Positions 3,711 to 58,513 of a stretch of DNA of 64,000 nt are shown here, one piece after another. The translations under genes were made by a program, and so were the position numbers. Below the pieces are notes generated by a model that was given only the letters and a program-made list of their open reading frames with translations, was not told where the DNA came from and made no database searches. Position 1 is the stretch's first letter, and each line of letters starts with the position of its first letter. This stretch comes from Nemertoderma westbladi (Eukaryota; Animalia; Xenacoelomorpha), in NCBI GenBank assembly GCA_032718475.1, contig JAUCBJ010005741.1, positions 62,001 to 126,000 of the forward strand, read 5' to 3'.

Positions 3711-4835
3711 AACAGTGAGGTTCATAAGATACAGCATAGGAATTAGGCTCGTTTCAGTAACCTGGGTACAGGAAGATAAACAGTGAGGTTCATAGGATAC
3801 ATTGTAGGAATTAGGCCCGTTTTAGTAACCGGGGTACAGGAAGATAAACAGTGAGGTTCTTAGGATACATCATAGGAATTAGGCGCGTTTCAGTAACCGC
3901 GGTACAGGAAGATAAATAATGAGGTTCATAGGATACAGTATAGGAATTAGGCTCGTTTCAGTAACCGGGGTACAGGAAGATAAACAGTGAGGTTCATAGG
4001 ATACAGTGTAGGAATTAGGCTCGTTTCAGTAACCAGGGTACAGGAAGATAAACAGTGAGGTTCATAGGACACAGCATAGGAATTAGGCCTGTTTCAGTAA
4101 ACGCGGTACAGGAAGATAACAGTGAGGTTCATACGATACAGTGTAGGAATTAGGCTCGTTTCAGTAACCAGGATACAGGAAGATAGACAGTGAGGTTCAT
4201 AGGATACATCATAGGAATTAGGCTCGTTTCAGTTACCAGGGTACAGGAAGATAAACAGTGAGGTTCATAGGATACAGCGTAGGAATTAGGCTCGTTTCAG
4301 TAACCCGGGTACAGGAAGATAAACAGTGAGGTTCATAGGATACAGCATAGGATTTAGGCCCATTTCAGTAACCGCGGTACAGGAAGATAAACAGTGAGGT
4401 TCATAGGATACAGCATAGGAATTAGGCCCGTTTCAGTAACCGGGGTACAGGAAGATAAACAGCGAGGTTCATAGGATACAGCATATGAATTAGGCTCATT
4501 TCAGTAACCGGGGTACAGGAAGATAAACAGTGAGGTTCATAGGATACAGCATAGGAATTAGGCCCATTTCAGTAACCAGGGTACAGGAAGATAAACAGTG
4601 AGGTTCATAGGATACAGTGTAGGAATTACGCCCGTTTCAGTAACCGGGGTACAGGAAGATAAACAGTGAGGTTCATAGGATACATCATAGGAATTAGGCC
4701 CATTTCAGTAACCGGGGTACAGGAAGATAAACAGTGAGGTTCATAGGATACAGCATAGGAATTAGGCCCATTTCAGTAGCCACGGTACAGGAAGATAAAC
4801 TGTGAGGTTCATAGGATACAGCATAGGAATTAGGC
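3711..4835. repeat. 68-bp minisatellite, ~16.5 copies, filling the intron of the small minus-strand gene
   Basis: Unit aacagtgaggttcataggatacagcataggaattaggctcgtttcagtaaccggggtacaggaagata, starting at 3711, 3779 and so on. Confidence 0.95.
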
Positions 4836-5744: not shown

Positions 5745-6210
5745 GGTAACCTGTGTGCTGACCGCTTCCATGGTAACCTATGTGCTGACCGCTACCATGG
5801 TAACCTGTGTGCTGACCGCTACCACGGTGACCTGTGTGCTGACCGCTACCATGGTAACCTGTGTGCTGACCGTTACCATAGTAACCTGTGTGCGACTGGT
5901 AACCCGTGTGCCGACCGCTACCACGGTAACCTGTGTACCGACCGCTACCACGGTAACCTGTGTGCCGACCCACGGTAACCTGTGTGCCGACCGCAACCAC
6001 GGTAACCTGAGTGCCAACCGCTACCATGATAACCCATGTGCCGACCCAGGGTAACCTGTGTGCCGACTGCTACCACGGTAACCCGTGTGTCGACCGGCGG
6101 TAACCTGTGTGCCAACCGCAACCACGGTAACCCGTGTACCGACCGCTACCACGGTAACCTGTGTGCCGACCCATGGTAACCTGTGTGCCGACCGCTACCA
6201 CGGTAACCTG
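5745..6210. repeat. 27-bp satellite, left part (split by the LTR element)
   Basis: Unit ctgtgtgccgaccgctaccacggtaac and shorter variants. Confidence 0.95.
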
Positions 6211-7351
6211 TGTAAAGGCTTTTGCGTAATTAGCCGGTTATTTTTCCCGTAAAGTACTCTGTAGTTGGTTTACCAGGCATAAAAGGCCGTGTCCTTACTG
6301 TATTGTTGTTTTAGAGGACATAAAAGTAATTTCTTCTGTATGTGTACTTTAGCGGACATAATCCGCAATTTTATGACGCAATAAGCCGGATCCTCTTGAA
6401 ACAGTGTAGATACCATGACGATGGCTAACAGCTGATATTGCCACGTAGAACATCTCTTTGTTCTTTGTTCTCTCTTTGTCCGGTCGACCAATCAGAGCGT
6501 TTTTTGCCTCTGTGTTGGAGATGGTATATAGAAACTAGGGAAGTGAGTCAGTATGTGATTTTTGTCCACAGCCTACAACACCGGCGTGGAACCTCCGTGT
6601 TTCAGTCTTTAGCATCAACATTAGTAGGCTTAATTATAGAACGTATATCCGTTATCTCAGTCACTCATAATTATTCATACCTTAACATTACTGCTTTTGC
6701 TGTCAGTTATTCATTATATTTGTTGATGGAATATTATATTCGGAATACTGATAAACAATCAGACACCCCAATCTTCTTGATATACTAAAGGTTAGATAGA
6801 CCGGATACATATAACGATTGCGACTTACATTAAGTGGTTTGAAGTGAATCTAATGCTATTTTATAGGCCCTACACGTATTGTCTGTTGTTCTCCTTATAT
6901 GTGACTAAAATTAGTGAAGGTCGGCAGATTAGTGTGCAGCATTGTGCAGTATTGTGTATGATTGTGATTGATAACGAAGCATCTCCTAAAGAATGCGCCA
7001 TATACGTGAATCTATAGCCATCCTGTTGTGTCTGGTTTAAGTCATAACTCTGTTTATATATTTAAAGCGCCACGTCCTAAAGGAACTGTTAATATTTCCC
7101 GAAAGTGAATAATATTTGTCAGAGATTATATATACTAAGATCAGTCGAATAATACAGTAGGCCTATCCCGCAATACGATTAGGCTTCCGAATCCAGTCTC
7201 CCGGGTATATCCAGCGGGTGAATGATCGCGCATAGACTGGTTTCGGCTAATGTAGTGTATCAAATATTTGTCGTAGGCTAAAGACTATCTATTATCTAGA
7301 AGACATCCTAATTTGGCAGGTTAAACTGCTAAAGGTCTGAAAGCGCGAACA
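6211..7351 (+). repeat. 5' LTR (1141 bp, TGT...ACA)
   Basis: Matches 23493-24633 apart from about 8 substitutions noticed by eye. Confidence 0.97.
6488..6553 (+). promoter_or_regulatory. Putative LTR core promoter (CCAAT, TATA, Inr)
   Basis: CCAATCAG at 6488, TATATAGAA at 6525 and TCAGT at 6548, in plausible order and spacing. Confidence 0.5.
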
Positions 7352-7366
7352 ATAACGGATATACGT
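7352..7366 (+). other. Primer-binding-site position: non-tRNA, complementary to LTR 6641-6655
   Basis: ATAACGGATATACGT directly abuts the LTR end. Its reverse complement ACGTATATCCGTTAT is at 6641-6655 and 23923-23937. No TGG-starting tRNA PBS is present here. Confidence 0.7.
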
Positions 7367-7694
7367 CTAATTGCAGGGTAGGCAATAAATACAGTTTAAT
7401 ATTGTTCTGGTAAGAACAATAACGGATACTGCTTCTGTATTGCAGTAGGCAATAAAGCTGAAGTACCGGCAACCGGTACCCAGTAGGCCTGACTACCTAA
7501 CCACCCGGACCGGTACCTACAGCAGTACAGGTACAGCAGTATTATTCGATTTTGATAATTATATACCAGTAGGCCTTAATAATTAATCGGGGACTGCAGC
7601 CCTGGTTTTTTATTGAGATTTTACTTATTTCTGTCAGTTTTATTTACTTGTAGGTTAATATTGAGCAGAAGGCGTGTAAGCCTGCTCAGATTGT

Positions 7695-8165
7695 ACAGAT
7701 AATTTGTAGGCTGGACTGTTGTCTGACTGTTGTTAAGTCTGAACGGATTGCAGTGTGTGTAGAGCATCTGTCCGATAAAGTGCTAGTTAGGAACGTAGGG
7801 GCTTCAAGTGCTGTGAGGTAAACCCCCTTTGAAAGAATAAGTCGTACTACTAGGTTAGAACGCATACTAACTAATCATTTCGGAGTCTGCATATACTGTA
7901 GTTTATTTAGGCTTGATAGTAGTCTGCCATCGTTTGGTCTGTACTTTGTTTGTGTAGTCTGTACAGGTAGCGTATAATTCTTATTTAGATAATTCGTAGG
8001 CTGGATAGTTGTCTGGCTGTTGTTAGGTCTGAGGAAATTTCGGTGTGTGTAGAGTGTATGTCCGATAAAGTGCCAGTTGGGAACGTAGTTTGTTTAGGCT
8101 TGATAGTAGTCTGTCAGTATTTGGTCTGGATTTTGTTTGAGTAGTCTGTACACGCGTAGCGTAAT
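7695..8165 (+). repeat. Imperfect direct duplication within the 5' leader of the LTR element
   Basis: 'agataatt.gtaggctgga..gttgtctg.ctgttgtta.gtctga...tccgataaagtgc.agtt.ggaacgtag' at ~7697 and ~7987; 'gtagttt.tttaggcttgatagtagtctg' at ~7898 and ~8085. Confidence 0.75.
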
Positions 8166-8808
8166 ATTTATTATTCAGAGTTTATGCGATTATTCGCAAC
8201 ATTCATTCCCCAAGTTTATTCCTGCAGTAATTGTGCTTGTTATACATACCGTTACAGTTAAACTAACCCCGGTACTACATCAGGGCTGCTCGGCGTAGGT
8301 AAAGACTGGAGATTTTGTGCTTTGGTCACTCCGGCAGATACCATGGTTCTTTTAGCTGTTCAAGTATTTCTAACTACTGATTATTTGTTATATAAGTACT
8401 TGTACCTAATTTAGGGTTTAGTGTACAGTGCTTTCCGAAGGTGATTAGTGTGTAGGCAGTATATTTGTGTTGTAAAGTGGTTAATAGGCACGTTGGTTCT
8501 GGTAGACCGCGGTAATTAACTTCTAGGTAGGAACACTCCGTGATACATAACGTAGTACTTATAGCGATACGGCTATAAGTCGTCAGACGGTGGTATTTTT
8601 CTATCTGGACAACGCAGTATATTTACTACTACTTATTATTTTCAAATACCGTAGTACCCTGTCCGTTGTAATAACCAGATATTCTAACCCTTTGTTAGGC
8701 TGGTTAGTAGACTTCTTGTAAAATTACCCTAAAAATTCGTATTATAAAATTCGTGCTGCCGCGGCAGCAGCAGCGGCAGAGGTAGAAGCGGAAAGAAAGG
8801 CGATAGAA

Positions 8809-11800
8809 GTGGAAAGAAAGGCGTTAGAAGTGGAAAGAAAGGCGGCAGTGGCAGTGGCCGAAGCGGAAAGAAAGGCTGTAGTGGCAGCGGCAGAGGCAGT
8901 GGCAGAAGCAGAACGGAGAGCGGCTGAAGAAACCACCCAATTAGAATTGGAAAACATTCAGGAGAATCAAGACTGCATAAATAAACAGTTAACAGCTAGT
9001 AATATGCAGATGATGAATCGATCTACTCCCAAAAGACAGGGATATACATCATCTGAGGAAGGCGATACCACCGATACTGAAGGCAAAGGAAATAGATCTC
9101 GTCTAAGCAGACGTAGAAGAACATCCCACCGTCAGAAATTGCCTGATTTGCCTCCAGCTGTTAGAAGGCAACTAAATAACACAAACTTAGGTAGTACAGA
9201 ACCCACAGACCAAATAATTAAAATAGAAAGACTCCCTACTATAGTAGATGAGCCTGAAATAATTAGGCCTGTTCCCGAAGCCACCCTTTCGGTGGTAGAG
9301 ACACCTGTACTCCCTGAACCTACCCCTAAATTCCCTCTGCACAGCACTAAGCTACCTGTGCCCAGCAGAACAGCCCATGAGACAATCCATGTTCTGGACT
9401 CCGAGCGAAATATTAATGATTTGTCGCCCGTTGTCCCTCGTCCGCCCGCTACAACGTTGGCGGCTCCCGCTTCGGCGGTCGAGTGGGTGGATGAGAAACG
9501 ACGGGGGATGGATCTCCTGCTCGGGCAGATGCAGGAGACCGTTCAGCAATTCAAGGGCACAGTAAGGGAAAGTAGGTTAGAGTTGCAAGAAGTGCAGCAA
9601 AGAATCGCGTTAGAACGCGATAAATTAGTAAATACACAAAAGGGTATACCACCACCCCCGGTAACAATGTGTCAACCTGTTAGGTCTGAAGTATTTCATG
9701 CGCAAGGTGTGGAGCCTACAAGCATATATACTGCTAGCGAAGTAGAAACTCCTATAGTGAACCCTATTAAGGGTAATTATAGACCTGTTGATAATGATAT
9801 TCCCTATAGACCTGATCATAATCCGAGAAATTTATATACCGATAACTCGATATTAAATAACACGATGGCCCAAGAAAGTTTTATGCGTCAAATGGCTAGA
9901 ACCGAAGCCCGGCAAGCGGTAAAGGTGGGAGAGATAGTCAACTTCAATGGAGATGAGATGAAATGGTTACCTTTTAATGAATATTACAAAGATAACATAC
10001 AGAACTCTGCGCTATCTAATGGAGAGAAACTTAGATTCCTCATCGAGTGCTTGGAACGATCTCCCAAGCTAATGGCGTTAAAGTTTATTGGACATCCAGA
10101 CGGATTAAGACAAGTTTGGGATACACTAAACATCAGGTATGGTAATAGGAATAACATAGCTGGGTATTTGTATGCAAAGTTGGTAGCGCCCCGAAAGTTT
10201 ATTAGCAGCGGGATTATAGAGTTTTCCGATGAGATTCAGGAGATCTGCAGACAATTAGATTGGCTAGGTAAGTCTCATGAGTATCAGAGTGCTATGGTTA
10301 TTAGAGCAGTGGCTTCTACTTTACCGAAGGGTGGAGTAGGTACACGCTGGGACAAGAAAGTGTTATATATGATGGAACAACAACAACGAGACCCTACCAT
10401 GGCTGATCTCATGTCATTCTTGGATGGCGAAGTGAAATTGCAGCTCATAAAGCAGTCCAGAGAGAAGACACCGGAAAACAAGGTAAGTGAGAAACCCGTC
10501 TCTAGGAGAAAGGTAACACCAGTGTGTTATACAGACGATGGCTAAAGCCAGACTTCTCAAGGAGAGGATAGCGGGAAAGACACTGAAAGATCTTATTATG
10601 TCAATAAAACGCCTAAAGACCAGGTAAGTAAATTCAAGTCTCGAACCAATGACAGGAGAGAACAGGTAAGAAAAACTCCTCCTACGTCTCCCAAGAGAAT
10701 TCAGGTGAGAAAGCCCGAAGAAAGAACGAGTGTGCACAATGTTACTCAAAATAAGGTAAGTAACATCAAACCGAAATGTGCGCTATGTGACGGGACCCAC
10801 CGTTTGAATACGTGTGATGAATTCCTGAAGAAATCATTAGCGGAGAGACGGGAAGTCATGTGGGATAAGCGGTTGTGTTATAATTGCCTCAGACAAGGAC
10901 ACCAACGGCGAACCTGTTACTCCGACACAAGGTGTGCAAAGTGCGGTGCGAAACATCATATCTTGTTGCACACTGAATTCGAGCGAAATAGTCCGAGTCA
11001 GGTAAGTGATTCCGAACTACATGTCCAATTCAGTGATGTGAACGACACTGATCAATCTGAGATGGAAGGATTCTATACGGACGAGTTCTCCGACGAAAAC
11101 GAATCCTGTTACATGATAAATACCGCAGTGTATCGAGCACTCACGTATGAAAAAGATACAGACAGCGACCTCACCCTAACTACTTCTGATCGACAACCAT
11201 CTTGGAAAGCACCATCTTCCAATGTAGGAATCCGAGAATTTCCTGTAGTACAGGTAAGGGTTCACGGACCTAAAAGGAGTTATGTAGTGAACGCCCTCCT
11301 TGACTCCGGTAGTACAGGAACATTCATCGACAAAGAACTAGCCGAAGACATTTTTGCTGGACAACCCAAGCTCCGAACTAAGCTAAACATGTCAGGAATT
11401 ATGCAGGTTTGGAAATCTACAGTAATCGCGGATTATTATGTAGGTGCGTTGTCCACCCCCCAGGATGAACTAGGAGAACATAGTATAAGGTCAGTAAAAA
11501 TGGTGGCGATAAAGAACTTCGCTACCACTCAAGTGGAACCTTATAACTGGGATGAGGACGATTTCACCCAGCAGCTGGAAATACCTAGACTCGACACCGA
11601 TTACCCTGGAGTGCAAATACTCATCGGTCAAAACGCGCATGAAGCGCTCGAGACATTGGAGAAACGGCCCGCTCAACCGCAACCACTACAAGCTTATGCG
11701 GGAAGAACTAGAGTGGGTTGGTACTTTACTGGCCCTTCCCGTAGAACTCTCATGGAAAGATTACCGAAAGACCAGGTATGTCAAGTGAGAGAATGGGAAG

Positions 11801-14267
11801 TCGAGAGCAGTGAGTTAGACGATCCAACTGAGGGAACACCATACTCCTCAGATAATGACGATGTCCACCAACTTTTCGATGAGGAGAATGCCATCGATCT
11901 CCTTAAGGAAAACGAGACTTGGCAAAACCAAGTGAATTTATGTCAACTCCTTCTTCCATCAGAGCGAGACGACTATAATGACGAGCTTAATGACGTCATT
12001 GAACGTTATAATGCCAAGACTCGGGACGAACACGCCGTACGATTCTTTACTCAAGAGGCTGTAGAGCCCAATTCCTATGATAAGGCCCTATCGGTAGAGG
12101 AAGAAAGAGCCAAGCAAATCCAAGAGACAACTACACGTTTTCTTAAAGATCAAGGTAGATATGAGATCGGTCTACCTTTCCGAAAGCGAGAACCAAAGTT
12201 CGTAAACAACAGACCCTTGGCGGAGAAAAGAATTGCTCAACTACATCGACGCCTTACGGCAAATTCTTCAGCTAAAGAAATGTATCAAACGCAGTTGAAG
12301 AAGTTTATTAGCAAGGGATATGCGGAGCTAGTACCGGAAGAAACACCTATAACTGAGAGAACGTATTATTTAACTCACCATTACGTTCCCAAACCCGGTA
12401 AACCACATGAGGTACGAGTGGTGTTTGACGGCTCCGCCCTCTATATGGGCCAATCCCTTAATTCTGAATTGCTACCCGGACCCAACTTACTCCAATCATT
12501 GTTGGGAATACTTTTAAGATTAAGACAATATTCCATTGCTTTCGCCTCAGATATAGAAGGCATGTTCTTACAAGTCAAAGCGCTGGATAGGGATCGAGAT
12601 AGCCTACGATTTCTGTGGTGGCCTGAAGGAGACCTCAACCAGAAACCGGTGGAGTACTGGATGACCATCCAAGCTTTTGGGATAATCTCGAGCCCTTCAA
12701 ACGCCTGTTCCGTGGTGCGCACCACTGCGGATGACAACCGAGACGCCTTCTCTAAAGAGGTGATTGACAACATTAAGCGGGATATATACATGGACGACAA
12801 TCTAAAGTCCCTTCCATCAGTCGAAGAAGCCATCGATGTCGCTAAAGGAACGGTAGAGTGCTTAAAAAGAGGTGGATTTCGATTAACTAAATTCACCAGC
12901 AACTCCCGTGAGTTTCTGGAGTCGATCCCGGTAGAAGATCGAGGAGCAAAAGACCTGGATCTAATAAAAGATGATCTCCCAGAAACTAAGACCCTTGGTT
13001 TGAAATGGGACACCGAAAGAGATATCCTGTTTTTCCAACTAAAACAGCGAGATAATCCAGTTCGGACTAAACGGATTTGTTTAAGTATCCTGAGCACTTA
13101 TTTCGATCCATTGGGATTTATTAGCCCAGTTATATTGATTGCTCGGAGTTTAGTACAACAAATGTGGCTTGAAAACCACTCATGGGACGATCCACTTAAG
13201 GGGGAGTTGTTAAAGAAGTGGATGAAATGGGAAGATTCTCTACCAGCCATCGAGAACTTTATAATTTCCCGTTCATATTTTGGTCATGTTCTCCCTACGT
13301 ATTCCTATCAACTCCATGTGTTTGGAGACGCCAGCGATATGGGAATAGGTATAGTAGCCTACCTAAGGGTGGAAACTCCGGACGGAATCAAAGTCGCCTT
13401 GGTTACTTCTAAGGCATTGATAAACAATAAGTTGAAAGTTCCTCGAGCGGAGTTAAAAGCGGCTCTATACGCTACAGCCATCGGCCGGAATGTAACAGAA
13501 CAGATCGACTATCCACTGGAGAAAACTGTCTATTGGACCGACGCTTTACTCGTGTTGGAGTATATAACCAATGAAGTCTGTCAGTTCAGCGTCTTCGTTA
13601 CCAACAGAGTAGCCATTATACTCAGTCGCACAACAATGGATCAATGGAGACATTGCCCCGGAACGATTAATCCAGCAGACATCGCCTCCAGGGGAGCAAC
13701 TCCACAAGAACTGGTAGACACTCCAGACTGGTTAGGTGGACCCGACTTCCTATACAAAGAAGAAGAAGAATGGCCTCCTCATCTTACTACAGCGGAGATT
13801 AGACAGGCCAAGGAAGCGGAGAAAGTCAAACCTAAAACTCGGGCGAGTAAATCGAAGTTATTCAAACCCATGGTAGATCTGTCTGTACTACATATTTCCG
13901 GAGACGACGCTTTGGATCAGAAACCCACAGCCACAAATAAACTTGTTGTGGAAATCCGTGAGAAGGATTGGAAATCTGGAATACCAGACGTCTCGCAAGG
14001 ACTCTCACCTCTTCTGCAGAGAGCGATACATCACTACAGTTCCTGGAATCGGCTCTGTAAGGCCGTTACATATTTAAAGAGATGTTTTCACCATCACTAC
14101 TCCGGGATGAAGGCCAAAGGTGATACCGCTCCAATAACATCAGTGCAGGTCCATGTTATTAAAGATCTTCCCAAATATAAGATATCCGACAGGTTTCTGA
14201 AGGAGAAGATCAGTTATCAGGAACATGACGAAACCAACAAGCAGATGCTGAGACTCCTGCAATGCTA
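8809..14267 (+). pseudogene. BEL/Pao gag-pol, 5' part (Gag, 3 Zn knuckles, aspartic protease, RT, RNase H), with one in-frame TAA at 10543-10545
   Basis: ORFs 8809-10545 and 10705-14295 share a frame and are separated only by that TAA. Motifs: FNGDEMKW/LSNGEKLRFL/LNIRYG (Pao Gag), CALC/CYNC/CAKC knuckles, LLDSGS, RVVFDGS, YMDD, HVFGDAS, YWTD, NPADIASRG. Confidence 0.93.
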
Positions 14268-15799
14268 CCGCATCTTTAAGGCCAGTGTCCTTTAAGATGC
14301 GTCTCAAGAAAGTCATAGGCTGTCCACCATGCTTATTCACTCCATGAGGCTGCCAAAGTACAAGATTATGCACTGGCTGATCCTCACGGCGAAAGCAATG
14401 TCCTGCAAAGCGGAGGCGATTTTGTTCTAGTGTCAAGCTTGGGGGAACCAATGAGACACCTCCAATGTTATATAGTGTCTGGTTGGAGATGTGTGCATTG
14501 TACTTGACACAATGAACCCGGCGTAGCATTCTTGTGAATGTGCCATCCAGAGATTTGGTGTCCTCAGCAGTTAGAGCCCAGCATGGACTCCCGTAGAGGA
14601 GTACTGGAACTACTGCTGCTCTAAATAATCGGACCTTAAGTTTCCGATTAATTCTCGGTGACTTCCAAATCCTGGAAAGCCTATTCAAGGCTGCCCATGC
14701 CTTTCCCTTACGTATTCGAAGGTCCTCACCTGACTTCCGGATCCATGATCCCAGGTAACAGAAGTCGTCCACATGCTCAAGCATACCATCCTTTGAGCTT
14801 ATGCTCATCCGATCAGAGACTTGCTGAGGACTTTCAAAGTTAACTGTCAGAATTTTGGTCTTTCTGGAGTTAATAAAAAGACCAACACTAGAAGCAGCAT
14901 GTTCTAATGAGCTGAGGAGCCGTTGGGCTCCCTCTAATGATTCTGAGAGTACTCCTAAGTCATCAGCAAAGTCTAGATCAGTTAAGTACTTGGCAGGATT
15001 TCCTCGACTTCTGGAGCCAGTAGGTGGAGTTATCATCACCCCATCATCATTATAATGATCTAAGGACATGCGTAGAACATAGTCAACCACAATAATGAAC
15101 AAGAATGGTGCAAGTGTGTCTCCTTGGAGGACGCCCCATAACACTTCAAATGGTTCTGTGTCACCGTCAACAGTAGACACAAATGTTGTCGAACCATCGT
15201 ATACTGATCTGATTGCTGCAATAATTTCATCAGGAATCCCATATAATGAATGTATGCTGAACATACGTGAGCGAGAGACTGAATCAAAGGCCTTGAAGAA
15301 GTCAACAAAGATAACAGCCAGATGCCTGTCTTTCTTTTTTGATAACTCTTCAATTATCCTTCTAAGTGCCAAAATGGGCTCCATGGTCCCACGACCTTTA
15401 CGGAACCCATTCTGATTTCCACGGAGCAGTCTCTCAATGGGATCCCTGATGCGATTTAATAGAATCCTATTGTATAGCTTTGCAGCAATCGAGATCAATG
15501 AGATTCCCCGAAAAGAACCATAGAGTGTTAGGTTGCCCTTCTTGGGAACTGGCACAAACTTATTTGTTTTCATTTCTTGTGGGACTCTTGTTGTTCGGTA
15601 CATGTCTACTATGATGGGATAGATGAGCTTTAAACACTCAGGTATTTTAAAGACCTCAGGGGGAACACCATCTACTCCACTGGCACGATTGGTCTTAATG
15701 CTCTTTGCAGCAGCCTTCACTTCTGCAAAAGAGATATCGCCAATGGGAATATCTGGGAGTACAGACTCAGACACTTTTACTTCTATAAAGTTATGGAAA
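14268..15799 (-). mobile_element. RTE-clade non-LTR retrotransposon fragment (intact RT frame, truncated at both ends) inserted antisense into pol
   Basis: ORF 14140-15855(-) has NQNGFRKGR, FVDFFKAFDSV, GVLQGDTLAPFLF, LDFADD, FCYLGS and RLRFAGHC. It is flanked by a 325-bp duplication of pol (13943-14267 = 15800-16124). Confidence 0.92.
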
Positions 15800-17529
15800 T
15801 TGTTGTGGAAATCCGTGAGAAGGATTGGAAATCTGGAATACCAGACGTCTCGCAAGGACTCTCACCTCTTCTGCAGAGAGCGATACATCACTACAGTTCC
15901 TGGAATCGGCTCTGTAAGGCCGTTACATATTTAAAGAGATGTTTTCACCATCACTACTCCGGGATGAAGGCCAAAGGTGATACCGCTCCAATAACATCAG
16001 TGCAGGTCCATGTTATTAAAGATCTTCCCAAATATAAGATATCCGACAGGTTTCTGAAGGAGAAGATCAGTTATCAGGAACATGACGAAACCAACAAGCA
16101 GATGCTGAGACTCCTGCAATGCTATGAGGATTCCGATAAGTATTTCCTGTTGTTGAGAAATCCACAGATGCGCTTAAGGGATCGTTTCTCTAGCACAATG
16201 ATAGATGGGTTAATACGTGTTGGAGGAAGATTAACGAATGCTCCATTATCCTTTGACACTAAGTTCCCCATACTCATTAGAAATCTTGAAATACAAGTCA
16301 AGATGATTGTAGATGTTCACAGCAAACTTTATCATGCTGGTAGAGAACGAGTTCTTAGCGAAATTCGAACTCGCTATTATTTTTATAAACCCCGTAGAGC
16401 TCTGAACCAAGTTCTTAGGAACTGCATACCCTGTAGGAAAGCATTCAGTAGGCCTTTAACACAGCGAGAGGCAGAATTACCTAGGGAACGAATAAGCTTC
16501 TATGAACCACCCTTTACTAATACCGGTGTAGATTTATTTGGCCCTATTGAAGTATATCGTGCTAGGACTATAGTCAAGAGATGGTGTGTAATCTTTGTTT
16601 GTATGACTTGTAGAGCTATCCATCTCGATATGGTGAACGATTTATCTACCAACAGCTTTCTATTAAGCTTACGACGACAGATCGCTCGCTTTGGCACTAG
16701 TAACACGATGAGATCTGATAAGGGAACAAACTTCATTGGTGCCAACAATGAAATCAAAGCTTACGTCAAAGATTGGAACCAAAGACAGGTGGACGATCAG
16801 CTACGAGTAACAGCGTCTAGCTGGACCTTCAACGCCGCCGACGCCCCTTGGTGGGGATGAAGTTGGGAGAGATTAATAAGAAGTGTGAAGACCGCATTTC
16901 ACTTTATAGTGCCTTGCCGCGCGTATCTCACCGACGAACTTTTGCGGACGTTAATGGAGGAAATCGCCGCCTATCTCAACGAGAGACCGCTTATGCCAGT
17001 CTCATCGAGTCCCGATTCCCTGGAAGCGCTAACACCCGCGCATTTCCTACTGAAGAAACCTGTAGCCATGCTCCCACAATCGGAAATCACAGACGGAGAC
17101 GAATACTGCCGGCAAACTTGGCAACTCATGCAGTTGTTATCCCGTCGTTTCGCTGACCATTTCGAAAAACATTATCTGCCCACGCTACAACTTCGAACTA
17201 AGTGGTTTGCGCAGCAAGAAAACGTCAGCGCTGGAGACATGGTTCTTATTGTGGATGTAGATCTTCCACGTAAGCGGTGGCAGACAGGTCGTATCATCGA
17301 GACTCACATCTCGGATGACGGTTTGGTGCGATCGGTAGAACTCGTCGTCATGCGACGTAACTTCAAGAAACCGGGAATTGTCTTCGAGACGCAGCAGCTC
17401 AATCGCCCAGTTGGTTGCTTATGTTTACTGGAAAGAGACAGAGAACTCTCCGGAAACTATGGGAGGCAAGATACTCTTCCCACGACCACCTCCCTAATCC
17501 AACAAACATCTAGGGACTCCCCAACTTAA
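15800..17529 (+). pseudogene. BEL/Pao pol, 3' part (integrase and C-terminal domain), with an in-frame TGA at 16858-16860
   Basis: RVGGRL, H..H..CIPC zinc-binding region, GVDLFGP, SDKGTNF, APWWG*SWERLIRSVK (expected GG), LTPAHFL, and a RTKW...GDMVLI...W.TGRI...DGLVR tail. All in the same frame as upstream pol. Confidence 0.92.
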
Positions 17530-18077
17530 CAATGGCTGGAGTGGGTGTATGACTATATTTGTATTTGTTTTATTCTTTTATATTTATGTATATATTATTA
17601 TGTAATTTTATTATAATCGTTTTCTTTAATTTTACTTAGTAGAATGTTATTTTAGCGATTATTTAGTAGATTAGTGCAATATGTATTCGCGTTTATTACT
17701 TAATTACTTATATATTATATATTTAGTGCGACGGCGAGAAATAATTCTTTTTCTCTTTCCTTACTGTCCGTATTACATTACAAATACGTAACTACAGTAA
17801 GATGAAATATCCGTACTTATTAAAGTACAATAAAGCCACTACTATATTCAAGTATTATTGGTAGGCAGAGTATTAGGAATGCAAAGTTCAGATCCTCGTG
17901 TCTCGGCTAAACCAAGCTCTGGGTAGACCTTGGAAACGACTTGCCTCTTCACACTGACATTGCTTCGTGCGATATTGCTCTCATACCGTATATTAAATAA
18001 TACATATAGTAGCGTGATGTCCCTTTAACAGTAGCGTATAACGCAAAATAAATCTGTTAAACCCTTTGACCATCTGC

Positions 18078-18378
18078 AATTCTAGTCGATTAAGATATCG
18101 TGGCACCCACCGATATACTTGAAAGACAAAATTCTAGAATCAGTGGTTAACGTCCCCAGACAAGTTCTGGAATAAACTGGTGCCCATCCTAAATATTAAT
18201 TATTAATATTTACAAAATCTGTCAAATATCAGATCCTTTAAAATTCTAGTCGATTAAGATATCGTAGCACTTACCGATACTCTTAAAAGGACAAAATTCC
18301 TAGAATCAAGGATCCCAGTCCCCAGACACGTTCTGGAATAAAATTGTGTCTATTTTAATATTAAATAATAAAATTTAC
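18078..18378 (+). repeat. Two diverged copies (164-bp spacing) of a hairpin-forming unit in the pol-ORF2 spacer
   Basis: aattctagtcgattaagatatcgt.gcac..accgata..ctt.aa.gacaaaatt.ctagaatca...ccaga.a.gttctggaataaa at 18078 and 18242. Confidence 0.85.
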
Positions 18379-19120
18379 GGGAATAAATTTAAATTCATAT
18401 ATTTCAATGAATTTAATAAATTGTCATTTTATACAATTTATAACATTCCCAAAATTCCATTAATTAATAGATCATGGGAGCGGAGATTCACTCTATTAAG
18501 TGTATTTGTGTGCGAGAATCTCCAATATAGTCAATAGCCGATAAAATTTATAAAATCATATATAGAGAGGATATTGACAATTAAAGAATTACTATTAAAT
18601 AGCATCCCAGATCTGTATGCATGAGAATTACCCTAATTCTACCGCTAGCTTTCCATAATGTCACCATGGCAACAACCACGCTAGAATTAGAAGTGAGTTA
18701 AAGAACAATAGAAGGCTTGCCCCATTGAATAGCATAGGGAATAAATAGCGCACTGCTAGTATCCAAGGATACATAATAAATACAGTGACATTCTGGAAGG
18801 TACTGACTAACGGACAAATGGCCCGAATGTGTGCGGTTTATGGCAGTTGTGTTGAATTTGTGCGTTTGTAGGTGAATGTTACTACTAAGGTGTGTTTACA
18901 GTAGCGAGTCGCAATTGTGAAAGTAGCCCTAACTCTCCAGAAAGAACCTGTAGTACATCTAAGCCTTTGGGACGGACAGTGGAGTGACTTGTGCCGGTTA
19001 TTGTTGTCGTTGTGTAGCTACATCGTTGGCGAAAGCACAGCGACGACGGTACATCGGCGCTGAGGATCTTACACTGTCCGGGGGCAAAAGAGGGGTAGGC
19101 AGCGACGCCCGCTAGCCTAA

Positions 19121-19128
19121 TATATAAA
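19121..19128 (+). promoter_or_regulatory. TATA-like box upstream of ORF2 (possible internal promoter)
   Basis: TATATAAA 40 bp before the ATG at 19161, preceded by a GC-richer stretch (~18960-19115). Confidence 0.3.
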
Positions 19129-19160
19129 CTCATTATAATATTGATAAACTCATAGCAGAT

Positions 19161-22100
19161 ATGACTGAGTTGATAGAAGATGATCTCGGTATTAGGGAGC
19201 GATATACTCTACCTTTACAAGCGTTTGTCGATAGCTTGATACGCGGCGACGCTGATCCAACTACTACGGAGGATGATGGTCGTTATATCGAACCGCCAAT
19301 GTCCCAGGAGCAACTTACGCGTGAATTGGATTATAGAAAGTTCACCGCTCGCTATACGCATCGTAATGGTACGTATATGGACTTCTTAACTACTGGCCAT
19401 CCTATCGATTTACACGATACGGACGATGTAGACACCGAAAGGGAAATGGTTTTATTTAGATATCATACCCAGCGGAGTCGGAACGACAAACCGAGAATAG
19501 AACACGAGAACTCTATTCGAAACAAACTCGAAAGGGAAGACGTTGAAGAGCCGGATAAACGCAGCGACTTCAACGATTATCTGGAATTCCTGAGAGAGAC
19601 ATATCTCAATATTGCCAGTCAACAAAATCTCGAAACTCGATATCCCCAAGGTATACATCATGATCCTATGATAGAACTCAAACGACTCTATTTCACTATG
19701 ATGTATCTTACCGCCGATCGACCGCTACCTGTCGTCCCAGATAGCTTCGAACAGATGGAGGAATATTGTAAAACTGGAGAACAATCACCCGCGTTTCCCC
19801 TGCAGGACGTGCGTCTGTGGTATTACTGCGACGAATGCCCTAGACCCAATCAGCAAACGGAAAGACATAAACATCCGCAGAGACATTGCGCTAAACACAG
19901 TTTTACCCGATATACTTATGGGAGTTTCGAGCGAAACCTGTTCGACGTATCCCCCTCGAACGGCTCGACTCAAACGATCCTTGAACAAACCAATGATCAG
20001 AGTTCCGGAATACTCGGTCAGACCTCCTCATTCCTCAGTTAGACCTCAGACTCTTGATCCTAATAGTATCACGGATCCTCCCGAACTGTACTCACTGTTC
20101 AAAGATCTAGTGTTACCCGAACAGTTGATCGGTGGCACCCCGGTGGTAGGCTCACTAGATATTCGCCAACCCTACCTAGCTGGATTGGGACGCGGTCATC
20201 TAATATCGCCGTTTAACCCATACAACCGTCGCGGCTTCACCTCGATCCAACCCGTTACGGAAGTCGAAGAGAGCGTCATACGAAACGCGCTAGACGCTAT
20301 TCGGCAGAAAATCGGAAAGGGAACTTACGATTGTTTGGAGAAACGTAAATTACAACAACAAGTCCAAGCGGTGAAGGAATTAGCTTTACCCAGTTCGATA
20401 GAGAAACACAAAATCTCGAGGAGGACATCGAACGTGGACGAACCTACTCTTTACAAGAGTTCCTAGATGAGCGTCTACAACAACAAGCGGAGGAAAATCA
20501 GCTCGAGGAGAGACATATAGAACTGGATGAGAGAGAAGAAGCAGCTTTAGCTCAACCCGAAGCTCAAATCCTTATGACGGATCTCTACTCTAAAACCATC
20601 CTTCATCCCTCGATGGTTCCCCATTTCGGAGACAAACTCTTTGCGACGGCACAACCACAACCGGTTGATATCAACCTAAGATCTCGAGATCTTATCGCTG
20701 ACGCTCCCATGTTACAGCGTCCTCCCATCGAAGCCGCTCGTGTCGAGGGTATACTCGTTGAACCTCCGGACAATAGAGCGGATCTTGTCCGTCGCATGGT
20801 ACACGATGTTAACATATGCGCTAGACCTTTACCGGACTCGTTTTATGGGATCAAAGATCACCCTTATTACGTTAACCTAACACAATATTACATGGTAAAA
20901 CCGGAAGATCCTACACATAGTCTGAGGTTTTTGCCACTCATAAATCCTCTCGATCTTGTCGAACTCGAACAACTGCATAAACATCTGGATCAGTTAGTTA
21001 AAGTAAACTCATTTCGAAAACCATATAATGTTTCCAGAATAGAGAAAGAAACAATACCTCCGTATAATCTTGATGGATTCATCAAAACTCGTTTAGTACA
21101 CTGGAATCTTGACGTGTTATTCGAGGAGGAAAGAATACAACGATATGGAGATGTGGAAACATATACCACACAATATTTAAAGTATAGAGACCTACCTAAT
21201 GCTAGCGAATGAGCTACCTTGTGGCATCCTGTGGGAATGACTCTCGAAAACGCCACTAAAGAGTGGAATGAGACTCTTAACGTTATCGAGATGTATGGAG
21301 TTGTCACCTACGACAACGAAGGTAGCGTTCCGGTTGGAGAACTGGGAACTACGCGGATGATACACATACGAGGACTCGCTGGTTCTACCCACGTATTTAC
21401 TCGAGCGTGTTCCGATGTGATTGATTATTCTTTTGAAACTCTTACTGAGACCCAAAAGAAACTCCGACATGGACAATTCGAACTCGCGCAGCGTTATGTC
21501 ACCGACACCGAGCGCAAACCGGCCATGGGTATCGATGGATCGATGTTACCCCAACCCGTGCTCGAGATGTTGTTTAACGAAAGAATCCTTAAAATCGGCT
21601 CGGCTGTTTATGGAGATCTACAAAACGACTTTCGGAATATGGAAAACATTCCATACCCTTTCGTTGATACTCAGCTGATTGCTCCCTGGGCAGAAGGCCG
21701 AGGTTTCTTCCGCACTATGTATGCCAATACACCCAGCGGCATTACTAAAGTACAACGAACCTCCATTGGACATCTTGCCTTTCAAGAATACGGATGGAAT
21801 TTCAAGGTTGGAAATCCTATAAATTACCAACAAGTATATGGAGATCATTATTCTCGTTTATACTTTGATGGACCATTGACCGCACCTGGCGCCGTGTATA
21901 GCTTTATGAGTGTTCCACTTCGTCCCTCCTTAGCTATATACACGATATTTGAAAACGCAGCACTTGCCGGTTGGCTAGCCGATGTGTGCAGTCGTACCAT
22001 ACGCGCGCATCCATTAATACTTGGAACCAAACTCGCCAAGTTAGATGAACACAATAAATTCATCCGCTTCGAATGTTTCAGGCGCTTTCTGACTCCGTTC

Positions 22101-23414
22101 CGTAACGTTGATAGTCAGTTCAAGGACCGCGCTCTGACCAAACTCAGCCTAAGAGACTCAGCTGCGGAGAAGCTAAACAGCGCGGGATTTGCTCTCTTTC
22201 AGGACGTTTGTATACAGAACTTACATTCATCTGTTATACAAAGACCCCGAATACCCACAGGTTATTCTGTCGTGGAAGTTCAGACAGTGGGTCCGCTTGC
22301 GGAGACAGCCGCACCTACCTCAGCTATGCAATTGGAAGACGAACCAATATGCTTAGAATCTGAAGCGATCCAGCCTACAGCGCCCCGGAGCAGCGATAAC
22401 GACTACGTCTTAGAGTGGTATCAAGGTCCACAATGTCTCACCGCACACGATTATCGACACGCTAACTATGTTTCTCGAAAACGTTGTCGATTATGCGCAT
22501 CAAGAGACCATTTCACCCCTATGGACTCAGACGTACCCTGCTCCTATTTCCACGAACAACCGATGATGGAGATATATTGTGCGTATTGCAGACTTAATAA
22601 CTCTCATATTTTTGCAGTCTGCCCCCAATTTATGACTCAATGCCACCACTGTCAACTTAAAGGACATGCCAGTTATAATTGCCCCTTTAATCGCGATTTA
22701 GAGAGCGTAGATGAGATGATTACCCTGCGCTACATCCGAGCTTGGGAAGCGAACGCGGATTTACATTGTGAGTCCCGCCATCGCTACTACCCTGGACGCT
22801 CTTACGAGGGAGTTTACGCGTTTCATCCTTATTTATTCGCGTCTGTGGAACAAAAAACACGCACACCGAGTTACGAACTAATGAAGCGTGTTGGTGAGTG
22901 TATTTCCACCAAATTTGTTCGAAAATACCTTAGGAACGTCAATCCTAACGATATTACTTCATACCATTTGATCAATTACATCTGTCAAGACCCTGAGTAT
23001 GGCGATTTATTTATCAACTCGTACCCTGAGTTACAGGAAGTATCTCGACGGCCCTATGAATATCGAGCCCGAGAACGCGAGCTGGAAAGAACCATTAAAC
23101 CAAGGAAGTTTCTCACCACTCACGGTCCGCCTACCGCTGTTGTCCAGACGACCCGTCAAGGACCCATAGGAGCTGCTGTCCTAAGACGCGCCCTAAAGGC
23201 CGTTAGACCTCGCTCCACTGAAGTTGATATCGATCAACCAGGTACCTCAACCGGCGGATACACCGATCGTAATTCTACACCTTCTGATGCAATTGTATTG
23301 CACCCTTCACCCAGGAGTTACAGCCCTCCTAGTAAAGTGGCTCGCCCCAAAGAGAAAAGGACTCTTGCTAGCCTCAAAAAACTGCGTAAACGCCGTCCGC
23401 GTAAGAAAGACTAA
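19161..23414 (+). pseudogene. Accessory ORF2 of the LTR element: putative DEDDy 3'-5' exonuclease + CCHC zinc-knuckle protein (~1400 aa reconstructed)
   Basis: ORFs starting at 19161, 20574 and 21219 share one frame, bridged by 19918-20466 (frameshifts at ~19900-20040 and ~20388) and one TGA at 21210. Exo motifs: VVTYDNEG, LPQPVLEMLFNERILKIGSAVYGD, FVDTQ, SIGHLA, PLRPSLAIYTIFE. Knuckles: CRLC..H..C, CAYC..H..C, CHHCQLKGHASYNC. Confidence 0.75.
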
Positions 23415-23483
23415 CTGTTTAGAGTATTTTTATATTTTAGAAACTGTGATTTGTTATATTTTATAGACTAAAATCCCATTTTC

Positions 23484-23492
23484 TGGGAGCGG
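23484..23492 (+). other. Polypurine-tract-like plus-strand primer site
   Basis: tGGGAGCGG lies immediately before the TGT of the 3' LTR. Confidence 0.55.
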
Positions 23493-24633
23493 TGTAAAGG
23501 CTTTTGCGTAATTAGCCGGTTATTTTTCCCGTAAAGTACTCTGTAGTGGGTTTACCAGGCATAAAAGGCCGTGTCCTTACTGTATTGTTGTTTTAGAGGA
23601 CATAAAAGTAATTTCTTCTGTATGTGTACTTTAGCGGACATAATCCGCAATTTTATGACGCAATAAGCCGGATCCTCTGGAAACAGTGTAGATACCATGA
23701 CGACGGCTAACAGCTGATATTGCCACGTAGAACATCTCTTTGTTCTTTGTTCTCTCTTTGTCCGGTCGACCAATCAGAGCGTTTTTTGCCTCTGTGTTGG
23801 AGATGGTATATAGAAACTAGGGAAGTGAGTCAGTATGTGATTTTTGTCCACAGCCTACAACACCGGCGTGGAACCTCCGTGTTTCAGTCTTTAGCATCAA
23901 CATTAGTAGGCTTAATTATAGAACGTATATCCGTTATCTCAGTCACTCATAATTATTCATACCTTAACATTACTGCTTTTGCTGTCAGTTATTCATTATA
24001 TTTGTTGATGGAATATTATATTCGGAATACTGATAAACAATCAGACACCCCAATCTTCTTGATATACTAAAGGTTAGAGAGACCGGATACATATAACGAT
24101 TGCGACTTACATTAAGTGGTTTGAAGTGAATCTAATGCTATTTTATAGGCCCTACACATATTGTCTGTTGTTCTCCTTATATGTGACTAAAATTAGTGAA
24201 GGTCGGCAGATTAGTGTGCAGCATTGTGCAGTATTGTGTATGATTGTCATTGATAACGAAGCATCTCCTAAAGAATGCGCCATATACGTGAATCTATAGC
24301 CATCCCGTTGTGTCTGGTTTAAGTCATAACTCTGTTTATATATTTAAAGCGCCACGTCCTAAAGGAACTGTTAATATTTCCCGAAAGTGAATAATATTTG
24401 TCAGAGATTATATATACTAAGATCAGTCGAATAATACAGTAGGCCTATCCCGCAATACGATTAGGCTTCCGAATCCAGTCTCCCGGGTATATCCAGCGGG
24501 TGAATGATCGCGCATAGACTGGTTTCGGCTAATGTAGTGTATCAAATATTTGTCGTAGGCTAAAGACTATCTATTATCTAGAAGACATCCTAATTGGGCA
24601 GGTTAAACTGCTAAAGGTCTGAAAGCGCGAACA
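23493..24633 (+). repeat. 3' LTR (1141 bp)
   Basis: Direct repeat of 6211-7351, followed by the TSD ACCTG. Confidence 0.97.
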
Positions 24634-27600
24634 ACCTGTGTGCCGACCGCAACCACGATAACATGTGTGCGGACCGCTAGCTAAAATGGTATCCCGTGTG
24701 CCCAATGCTACTATGGTAACCCGTGTGCCCAATGCTACTACGGTAACCCGTGTGCCGACTGGTACCACGGTTACCTATGTGCCAACCGCTACCATGGTAA
24801 CCTATGTGCCGACTGCTACTGTGTGCCGACCGTTACCATGGTAACCTGTGTGCCAACCGCTAGTGTGTGCTGACTGCTACCACGGTAACCTATGTGCCGA
24901 CTGCTACTGTGTGCCGACGGCTATTAGGGTAACCTGTGTGCCGACCGCTACCATGGTAACTCGTGTGTCGACCGGCGGTAACCTGTGTGCCAACCGTTAC
25001 CACGGTGACCTGTGTGCCGAACGCTACCACAGTAACCTGTGTGCCGACCGCTACCATGATAACCCATGTGCCGACCCAGGGTAACCCATGTGCCGACTGC
25101 TACCACAGTAACCTATGTGCTGACCGCTACTGATGCCAACCGCTACCACGGTAACCTGTGTGCCGACCGCTACCACAGGAACCTATGTGTTGACTGCTAC
25201 TGTGTGCCGACCCCTACCACAGTAACTCGTGTGCCGACCCACCACGGTAACCTGTGTGCCGACCATAGTACCCTGTGTGCCGACCGCTACCATGATAACC
25301 CATGTGCCGACCCACGGTAACCTGTGTGCCGACTGCTACCACAGTAACCTATGTGTCGACCGCTACTGTGTGTCGACTGCTACCACAGTAACTCGTGTGC
25401 CGATCAACCATGGTAACCTGTGTGCCGACCATGGTACCCTGTGTGCCGACCGCTACCACGGCAACCTGTGTGCTGACTGCTACCACGGTAACCCATGTGC
25501 CAACCCACGGTAACCCATGTGCTGACCCACGGTAACCTGTGTGCCGACCGCTACTGATGCCAACCGCTACCATATGGTAACTCGTGTACCGACCGACGGT
25601 AACCTGTGTGCCGACTGCTACTGTGTGCTGACTGCTACCACGGTAACCTATGTGCCGACTGCTACTTTGTGCCGACTGCTACCATGGTAAACTGTGTGCC
25701 AACCGCTAGTGTGTGCCGACTGCTACCACGGTAACCTATGTGCCGACTGCTACTGTGTGCCGACCGTTACCAGGGTAACCTGTGTGCCGACCGCTACCAC
25801 GGTAACCCGTGTGTCGACTGGCGGTAACCTGTGTGCCAACCGCTACCACGGTAAACTGTGTGCCTACCACTACCACGGTAACCCGTGTGCCGACCGCTAC
25901 CACGGTAACCTATGTGCCGACCGCTACCACGGTAACCTGTGTGCCAACCGCAACCAAGGTAACATGTGTGCGGACCGCTACCACGGTAACCTGTGTGCCG
26001 ACCCACGGTAACCTGTGTGCCGACCGCAACCACGGTAAACTGTGTGCCTACCACTACCACGGTAACCCGTGTGCCGACCGCTACCATGGTAACCTATGTG
26101 CCGACCGCTACCACGGTAACCTGTGTGTACCGCAACCACAGTAACATGTGTGCGGACCGCTAGCTACAATGGTAACCCGTGTGCCGACCACCACGGTAAC
26201 CCGTGTGCCGAATGCTACCACGGTAACCCGTGTGCCGACTGGTACCACGGTTACCTATGTGCCAACCGCTACCATGGTAACCTGCGTTCCGACCGCTACT
26301 GTGTGCTGACTGCTACCACGGTAACCTATGTACTGACTGCTACTGTGTGCCGCTCGCTACCATGGTAACCTGTGTGCCAACCGCTAGTGTGTGCCGACTG
26401 CTACCACGGTAACCTATGTGCCGACTGCTACTGTGTGCCGACCGCTACCAGGGTAACCTGTGTGCCGACCGCTACCATTGTAACTCGTGTGTCGACCGGC
26501 GGTAACCTGTGTGCCAACCGCTACCACGGTAACCTCTGTGCCGAACGCTACCACAGTAACCTGTGTGCCGACCGCTACCATGATAACCCATGTGCCGACC
26601 CAGGGTAACCCATGTACGACCCACGGTAACCTGTGTGCCGACTGCTACCACAGTATCCTATGTGCTGACCGCTACTGATGCCAACCGCTACCACAGTAAC
26701 CTGTGTGCCGACTGCTACCACAGTAACCTATGTGTCGACTGCTACTGTGTGCCGACCGCTACCACAGTAACTCGTGTGCCGACCCACCACGGTAACCTGT
26801 GTGCCGACCATGGTACCCTGTGAGCAGACCCCTACCATGATACCCCATGTGCCGACCCTGGGTAACCCATGTGCCGACCCACGGTAACCTGTGTGCCGAC
26901 TGCTACCACAGTAACCTATGTGTCGACCGCTACTGTGTGTCGACTGCTACCACAGTAACTCGTGTGCCGACCCTGGGTAACCCTTGAGCCGACCACTGTA
27001 ACCTGTGTGCCGACCGCTACCACGGTAACCTGTGTGCCGACCGCAACCATGGTAACCTGTGTGCCAACCGCTAGTGCGTGCCGACTGCTACCACGGTAAC
27101 CTATATGCCGACTGCTACTGTGTGCCGACCGCTACCAGGGTAACCTGTGTGCCGACCGCTACCACGGTAACCCGTGTGTCGACCGGCGGTAACCTGTGTG
27201 CCAACCGCTACCACGGTAACCCGTGTACCGACCGCTACCACGGTAACCTGTGTGCCGACAAAAGGTAACCTGTGTGCCGACCGCTACCACGGTAACCTGT
27301 GTGCCGACCCACGGTAACCTGTGTGCCGACCGCAACCACGGTAAACTGTGTGCCTACCACTACCACGGTAACCCGTGTGCCGACCGCTACCACGGTAACC
27401 TATGTGCCGACCGCTACGACGGTAACCTGTGTGCGGACCGCTAGCTAAAATGGTATCCCGTGTGCCGACCGCTACGACGGTAACCTGTGTGCCAACCGCA
27501 ACGACGGTAACATGTGTGCGGACCGCTAGCTACATTGGTAACCCATGTGCCGACCACCACGGTAACCCGTGTGCCGAATGCTACCACGGTAACCCGTGTG

Positions 27601-43652: not shown

Positions 43653-43889
43653 CTGTGGCGTGGGGATAGTATAAACGAGATATAGAAATACAGACCTAAA
43701 ATTGTATATAATTGAATAAAGAATTAATTATATTTATATTTTTGCTATATTATATCTTACTGTATGTACGTGATACCGGATCTCGGTGTAATAAAATTAA
43801 TATATATTATATAATAATAAATTAATATAACTGATGAGATTAAAAATAATGTAAATAAGAATGATTTGTTTTCGAAACTAAGTTAAGAC

Positions 43890-45470: not shown

Positions 45471-45582
45471 AGACTTTAACTCTTTACTTATCTTTGAAAG
45501 ACATACTTTAGAGTACATGCCACCAAATATTTATCTCTAAGTTAACAGAAACAAAAGGTCAGAAAGTCTTCTGGAGTGTTAA

Positions 45583-48500: not shown

Positions 48501-48958
48501 GGTAGTGGCTACCTCATCCCCCTTCCGGACTGTTACGGTAGTGGGTACCTCATCCCCCTTCCGGACTGTTACGGTAGTGGCTACCTCATCCCCCTTCCGG
48601 ACTGTTACCGTGGTAGTGGCTACCTCACTCCCCTTCAGGACTGTTACGGTAGTGGGTACCTCATCCCCCTTCCGGACTGTTACGGTAGTGGCTACCTCAT
48701 CCCCCTTCCGGACTGTTACGGTAGTGGCTACCTCATCACCCTTCCGGACTGTTACGGTAGTGGCTACCTCACTCCCCTTCAGGACTGTTACGGTAGTGGC
48801 TACCTCATCCCCCTTCCGGACTGTTACGGTAGTGGCTACCTCATCCCCCTTCCGGACTGTTACGGTAGTGGCTACCTCATCCCCCTTCCGGATTGTTACG
48901 GTAGTGGCTACCTCATCCCCCTTCCGGACTGTTACGGTAGTGGCTACCTCACTCCCCT
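45583..48958. repeat. 36-bp minisatellite, ~94 copies, intronic
   Basis: Unit ggtagtggctacctcatcccccttccggactgttac. Confidence 0.97.
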
Positions 48959-58316: not shown

Positions 58317-58513
58317 TCCACCATGATTATTCGCTCCATGAGACCGCCAGAGCACAAGATTATGCACTGCCTGGTCCTCAAGGCGAAAACAATGTCCTGC
58401 AAAGCGGAAGCGATTCCGTTCAAGTGTCAAGCTAGGGGAGACTAATGTAACACCTTAAATGTTGTATAGAGTTTGATTGGAGATGTGTTCATTGTACTTG
58501 ACACAATGAACCC
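58317..58513 (-). mobile_element. RTE fragment (same family as the insert in pol and 44247-44900)
   Basis: Matches ~14325-14518 on the plus strand (cacaagattatgcactg..gtcctgcaaagcgga..tgtacttgacacaatgaaccc). Confidence 0.8.

Follow-up and report, generated by a model that had tools for sequence, protein, structure and literature searches.

Self-priming of reverse transcription has been described for the Tf1/sushi elements and predicted for the plant element Tcn1 and the copia lineage TAR, as far as the available portions of the two sources reach (PMC6317226, PMC4600332). Proof exists for Tf1 only, the mechanism being a prediction for its relatives and for one plant copia lineage. The C. elegans element Cer7 reportedly encodes a tRNA-like primer of its own. 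In Tf1, according to the accessible part of one account, the first 11 bases pair with the primer-binding site (PBS), the cleavage by RNase H falling between bases 11 and 12 (PMC7175516); the Tf1 "pretzel", again as given in part of its source, includes a side duplex formed by the PBS-adjacent leader and U5 (PMC10085805). BEL/Pao elements, which make up one of the three principal LTR superfamilies in animals, are placed by the ICTV in the Belpaoviridae, which are described with a size of 4.2-10 kb and a PBS of 18 nt for tRNA-Arg or tRNA-Gly, and their replication, called "poorly understood", is taken to be tRNA-primed (PMC8742986). The statement in an earlier note on this DNA that BEL/Pao elements normally use tRNA agrees with that description. 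No report of self-priming in BEL/Pao was found in the literature searched, a scope that ends short of subscription journals, Repbase/GyDB and supplements. The terms PBS, tRNA and priming are absent from the accessible main text of four BEL/Pao surveys (PMC554778, PMC3118150, PMC6238403, PMC8556966), and the available parts of six further papers contain nothing on BEL/Pao priming (PMC3601003, PMC6934838, PMC8220671, PMC10886601, PMC3286476, PMC5408684).

The window analysed here, a stretch of 64,000 nt from Nemertoderma westbladi, contains an LTR element at 6211-24633 whose two LTRs differ at 8 positions in a self-comparison of the window (Table 1). It combines TG...CA LTRs, a target duplication and a polypurine tract with Pao-type gag-pol domains in the order gag, PR, RT, RH, IN (DUF1759, Peptidase_A17, Integrase_H2C2 and DUF5641), PF05380 is present in all 120 homologues among the matches listed, and the polyprotein is 40-44% identical to those of BEL/Pao elements from bivalves, sea urchins and corals; a brittle star is a further source of named homologues, at about 40% identity. 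Judged by these features, the element is a young BEL/Pao copy. The copy is broken by the in-frame stops at 10543 and 16858 and by the nested antisense RT fragment, so that its own activity is uninformative. With the Belpaoviridae it shares LTRs, polypurine tract and a gag-pol with DUF1759, Peptidase_A17, H2C2 and DUF5641, whereas it differs from them in its span of 18.4 kb, of which about 16.6 kb remain if the nested insertion is subtracted, in its extra ORFs and in having no PBS of the kind described (PMC8742986). An 18-nt site for tRNA-Arg or tRNA-Gly is absent; membership in BEL/Pao itself rests on Pol.

Table 1. Coordinates of the element and its putative priming signals within the window.
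Feature	Position	Strand	Remarks
Target-site duplication ACCTG, 5' side	6206..6210	+	element inserted into tandem satellite
5' LTR	6211..7351	+	1141 bp, TGT...ACA
Predicted promoter	6488..6553	+	CCAAT 6488, TATATA 6525, initiator-like TCAGTA 6548
Candidate self-primer (3' end of predicted primer)	6641..6655	+	
U5 arm of U5-leader stem	7161..7174	+	13/14 pairs with 7370-7383
Primer-binding site	7352..7366	+	flush with LTR end, without TGG
Leader arm of U5-leader stem	7370..7383	+	
Second copy of LTR end and primer site	7414..7456	+	67-nt tandem unit
gag-pol, single frame	8722..14295	+	DUF1759, Pao Peptidase_A17; in-frame stop 10543-10545
Antisense non-LTR-type RT fragment, nested	14268..15796	-	between copies of a 328-bp stretch
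Integrase region	15797..17529	+	H2C2, DUF5641; in-frame stop 16858-16860
Extra ORFs, no known family	19128..23414	+	about 4.3 kb in length, following pol
Polypurine tract GGGAGCGG	23485..23492	+	
3' LTR	23493..24633	+	contains second primer-segment copy, 23923-23937
Target-site duplication ACCTG, 3' side	24634..24638	+	

The 15 nt that follow the 5' LTR, ATAACGGATATACGT, match, as the earlier note had observed, the reverse complement of 6641-6655 exactly, and likewise that of the corresponding segment in the 3' LTR. The pairing is indeed flush with the LTR boundary: the LTR ends are fixed by TGT...ACA and the ACCTG duplication, so that the match begins at the first post-LTR base, and a match started at 7351 reaches merely 6 nt. 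Duplex computation also recovers the outward extension with bulges that had been noticed. A TGG-type site is missing, as had been claimed, the first TGG lying at 7408, 56 nt past the LTR, with none within 55 nt, and neither a tRNA nor an Rfam family was found in the window with ARAGORN and Rfam. When the LTR was dinucleotide-shuffled 5000 times, matches from 7352 reached at most 12 nt (13 or more in 0/5000), and the element's 16,080 internal start positions gave at most 11 nt against the LTR. A PBS complementary to the element's own LTR and flush with the LTR end is the Tf1-type arrangement; according to the accessible parts of the sources, an LTR-complementary PBS beside the 5' LTR and the lack of a tRNA site are what Tf1 and Tf2 of S. 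pombe, Tj1 and Tosmo, Tf1/sushi members of the Ty3/gypsy chromoviruses, have in common with this locus (PMC10085805, PMC4600332, PMC7175516).

The LTR end together with the primer site is duplicated. The second copy, 67 nt downstream and 84% alike, also pairs with the LTR, at 6634-6655 and partly by G-U, with a duplex energy of -20.0 kcal/mol as against -23.0 kcal/mol for the first site, and the top three of 3226 windows scanned for pairing with the LTR segment are accounted for by the two copies. A consensus splice donor at 7410 lies within a 9-bp hairpin that separates them. AATAAA occurs twice in the leader (7384 and 7451), neither AATAAA nor ATTAAA occurs in the LTR, and gag has no ATG nearby.

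Next to the primer site, the leader forms a stem with U5 (-21.1 kcal/mol) that was equalled in 0/100 shuffles. The copy in the window has a C7167-G7377 pair in this stem, while across the family A makes up 85-93% of the depth at 7167 and T 92-98% at 7377, which pair as well; these alleles are unphased and 210 nt apart, and depth does not equal copy number. At the neighbouring position 7166, C accounts for 96-99% of the summed depth, which turns a G-U into a G-C pair. The leader-U5 side duplex resembles that of the Tf1 pretzel as it appears in part of the literature on Tf1, although only one side stem is significant here, the stem at the LTR end being matched by 13/100 shuffles. A post-PBS side stem is not general among related elements, reaching 5/100 shuffles or fewer in only 3 of 19. 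The central helix between LTR segment and primer site did not form in ViennaRNA folds of 760-930 nt (pair probability at most 0.01 in those of 850-930 nt), and forcing it costs 3.2 to 8.2 kcal/mol.

The RNA start is predicted from promoter motifs to lie near 6550. The earlier note had placed it about 90 nt upstream of the paired segment; the motifs predict the same site, and that relatives may share the offset is at present a lead only. As raw counts, uncorrected for background, 6 of 19 elements have a TATA-like word 116-135 nt ahead of the paired segment and 5 of 19 an initiator-like word 86-94 nt ahead of it, the others having such words at 16-52 nt or none. Donor-like words at 6543 and 6551 and acceptor-like words at 6605 and 6612 lie upstream of the segment, and splicing between them would leave it unchanged. 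Their spacing of 55-70 nt equals that of the short LTR introns of relatives, and the acceptor-like words are kept in loose ends of the family and in a second organism.

Variation among family copies was assessed in contigs from three DNA runs on two samples of one organism, one of which may be the source of the window. The family is high-copy in these runs, the region 6575-6715 being covered by 233, 93 and 48 contigs, which drop rare variants and leave out copies less than 80% alike. Within this region, substitutions at 2% or more occur only at 6613, 6660, 6662, 6666 and 6676, so that 6614-6659 is free of them and carries only small indels at 6614-6617, 6632, 6637 and 6659; for comparison, 208 places vary at 3% or more over the 1601 nt of 6100-7700 in run X1. 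Loose ends and indels of the family contigs start at 6656-6657. Taken together, the substitution-free stretch and the loose ends from 6656 onwards place the end of constraint at the predicted primer end. Pieces covering 6487-6594 show no other letters at high depth. Among the best-supported 40 of 272 variants, none falls in 7352-7366 and nothing points to other copies having a tRNA-type site, which by the earlier note would have counted against its reading. Low-depth joints show copies with one or three of the 67-nt units. One low-depth contig has different letters past the LTR end. No splice joint or loose end inside the element's own 15-mer appears among the variants listed.

Scans of metagenome and genome contigs for relatives gave at least 95 loci (the first scan being limited to its 80 best out of 532). 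Of the 95, 42 have the RT match enclosed by a direct repeat; 16 loci were excluded as contig-end overlaps, duplicates, degenerate or not clearly LTR, and 26 were tested. In 12 of these the LTR end is fixed by the direct repeat (set A), and in 14 it was picked from ACA candidates with a shuffle control (set B). A 4-nt terminal inverted repeat had been tried as criterion for the LTR end and was given up in favour of the ACA candidates, as it missed true ends. Matches were sought with a splice-aware search restricted to strict sites, a version accepting any GT donor having given cross-matches of 10 nt. Several of the loci (L081-L095) are animal BEL/Pao elements in prokaryote genome records, namely MAGs and a Wolbachia record, which probably reflects contamination with host DNA. 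No relative was found in viral contigs.

A site of 10-15 nt matching the own LTR is present in 21 of the 26 relatives, corresponding to about 17 distinct families, and in 18 of them the match crosses a GT-AG splice junction. Set A contributes 11 of 12, with matches of 10-15 nt located 0-4 nt from the LTR end, two of them contiguous and nine spanning a GT-AG junction whose sites are consensus-like. Without splicing, the nine fall to 6-9 nt; matches between families stay at or below 9 nt in 152 pairs of a 13-element matrix, and 30-mers farther down the leader reach 10 nt at no more than 1% of positions. In set B, 10 of 14 match over 10-12 nt (nine spliced, one contiguous), a score reached by 0-4 of 40 shuffles. 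Five relatives have no match to their own LTR, four of set B and L091 of set A, which has a TGG 4 nt past the LTR and stands separate in the tree. Of 19 elements, 16 have AC or AT at the end of the paired segment, the window element among them; the introns sit just upstream of the primer's 3' end, and several relatives have an AATAAA within 100 nt past that end. Between the sister elements L082 and L083, two of the three terminal exon bases are different, as are both of the bases with which these pair in the site. Hence the compensatory changes that the earlier note had proposed to look for do occur, and complementarity is kept rather than lost in diverged relatives.

In the relative L057, the two LTRs (1-340 and 6694-7103) appear in different states, one with an intron-like sequence and acceptor and the other with a contiguous match. 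This pair possibly records intron loss via spliced RNA, though the donor lies off the contig, the LTRs are 88% alike and a chimeric assembly could also account for it. In the RT-RNase H tree, which is built without the named references Sinbad, Suzu, Tas, Flow and Sparrow, the window element falls outside the main group of relatives, on a long branch, so that the trait spans a deep divergence. Judged from these matches, it is not peculiar to the window element and extends to BEL/Pao relatives at about 40% RT identity, mostly across a splice junction.

The element likely works like Tf1 while being a member of BEL/Pao and not of Tf1/sushi, whose Pol is that of Ty3/gypsy chromoviruses, whereas the domains and homologues of the window element are those of BEL/Pao. 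The pairing of Tf1, in the available account, covers 11 nt at the very 5' end of the RNA, in contrast to 15 nt here, at a distance of 696 nt from the LTR end and, by prediction, about 90 nt into the RNA. The window element further differs from Tf1 by its doubled primer site and its relatives by building the match through splicing, and cleavage of the primer is proven for Tf1 and putative here. TAR (Houba, Osr-1) of Ty1/copia and plant Tcn1 are comparable in that their self-priming is predicted from sequence, yet they belong to other superfamilies, and neither splicing nor a long primer is mentioned in the accessible part of the source (PMC6317226).

We estimate the probability that these elements prime themselves, all variants taken together, at about 0.8. 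The reading of the earlier note stands as far as conservation, own-LTR matches and compensatory changes carry it, whereas the priming event, the cut and the RNA start are what we infer. The form we hold to be slightly favoured is one in cis, in which a 5' piece of the element's own RNA would prime after a cut behind base 6655. The RNA would start near 6550, 6641-6655 would fold onto 7352-7366 with the aid of the U5-leader stem and a Gag chaperone, and the element's RNase H would cut at the duplex end as in Tf1, so that a primer some 105 nt long would be left with a free 3'-OH. Reverse transcriptase would then copy from 7351 back to 6656 and jump to the 3' LTR copy, from which the part consumed as primer could be recovered. 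In most relatives, the duplex would form only once an intron in the consumed part of the LTR has been spliced out. Against the cis form stand the free folds, which lack the central helix, and the location predicted for the segment, about 90 nt from the RNA 5' end.

Another copy of the segment might prime instead, either a short capped LTR-only transcript acting in trans or the 3' LTR copy at 23923-23937. We regard this as unlikely, at odds well short of even, although several observations fit it: cis folding across 700 nt is unfavoured, the window element offers two primer-site copies, several relatives carry an AATAAA no more than 100 nt past the primer end, and 18 relatives need splicing while young, near-identical LTRs retain the intron in DNA. 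Such retention would be explained simply if a spliced short RNA primed an unspliced genome, and the LTR pair of L057 suggests that the spliced form can enter DNA. The U5-leader stem with its paired, unphased allele swap is on the other hand a feature of the cis pretzel of Tf1, and the match of the window element requires no splice. If on the contrary a tRNA were the primer, strong-stop DNA would copy R from the RNA 5' end and a spliced intron would be lost from the LTR. The introns of the relatives lie in the part that a self-primer would consume and recover, which favours self-priming over a purely structural role of the pairing. Such a role, in circularisation, dimer formation or a switch of splicing or translation, with some other host RNA as primer, is improbable in our judgement. 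LTR elements commonly have long-range pairings close to the primer site, and priming alone leaves unexplained why conservation extends about 25 nt farther upstream than the paired segment; however, here the duplex reaches exactly to the LTR edge and in relatives to within 0-4 nt of it, conservation goes no further than the duplex end, and the sites differ between elements, so that no single host RNA fits.

That differing sites in about 17 distinct families each fit their own LTR also makes it very improbable that a host tRNA fragment is what the site pairs with and that the LTR match is secondary. The usual anticodon-loop pattern of tRNAs is pyrimidine-U-anticodon-purine, and by inspection the 15-mer does not conform to it in a plausible register. 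Half-molecule primers do exist and give sites without TGG, though the available parts of the sources report them for copia-type elements only (PMC6317226, PMC10886601). The idea that a single copy underwent a local inverted duplication or a template switch, to which the 67-nt tandem duplication of variable unit number at the junction and the one low-depth contig with other letters past the LTR end might point, is largely refuted by the canonical LTR ends with target duplication, the LTR segment invariant across the family, the absence of variants in 7352-7366 among the best-supported 40 of 272 and the shared design of distant relatives.

Beyond self-priming as such, we tentatively propose, at somewhat less than even odds, that a large and ancient share of the BEL/Pao superfamily in marine invertebrates does entirely without tRNA and would use a long primer from its own LTR RNA, in most families joined from two halves by the host spliceosome, with splicing licensing replication and spliced RNA priming the unspliced genome. 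The 18-kb lineage would then be an intron-free variant that has a pretzel like that of Tf1, two primer sites and perhaps a 3'-5' exonuclease of its own that trims the primer. If self-priming holds, a third superfamily would prime itself, with a long primer and an often splice-built junction, which would revise the view of primer evolution. It would also explain the persistence of introns inside LTRs, and such elements might escape silencing by tRNA fragments. Annotation tools that require a tRNA site would miss or misjudge them.

A lead towards such an exonuclease comes from the last of the extra ORFs (21213-23414, 733 aa), which gave weak hits to EXD/DEDD-type 3'-5' exonucleases and zinc knuckles (atlas 0.88). 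It has a single homologue of the same layout (E 4e-5), on which the exonuclease Pfam family scores E 0.2; another homologue search found none, a search for a solved structural relative found none, and a single-sequence structure model with pLDDT 30 is too poor for use. That its product could trim the primer end is speculation. The bdelloid elements Juno and Vesta likewise have an extra 3' ORF, ORF3, described in the accessible part of the source as a DEDDy exonuclease, in contrast to the weak lead in the window element (PMC5408684).

The two copies of the 328-bp stretch that flank the nested RT fragment of about 1.5 kb (13940-14267 and 15797-16124) have 1 mismatch and by far exceed a usual target duplication in length; fragments related to the nested one recur at 44249-44762 and 58314-58513. 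The satellite into which the element inserted is GC-rich with units of about 22-44 nt (5745-6210 and 24634-30070), and the window holds further tandem arrays at 3711-4835 (68 nt) and 45500-48900 (36 nt). Exons of an ankyrin-repeat and KH-domain gene lie on the minus strand at 39903-43727 and 60296-61720, which we take to be ANKHD1/Mask-like.
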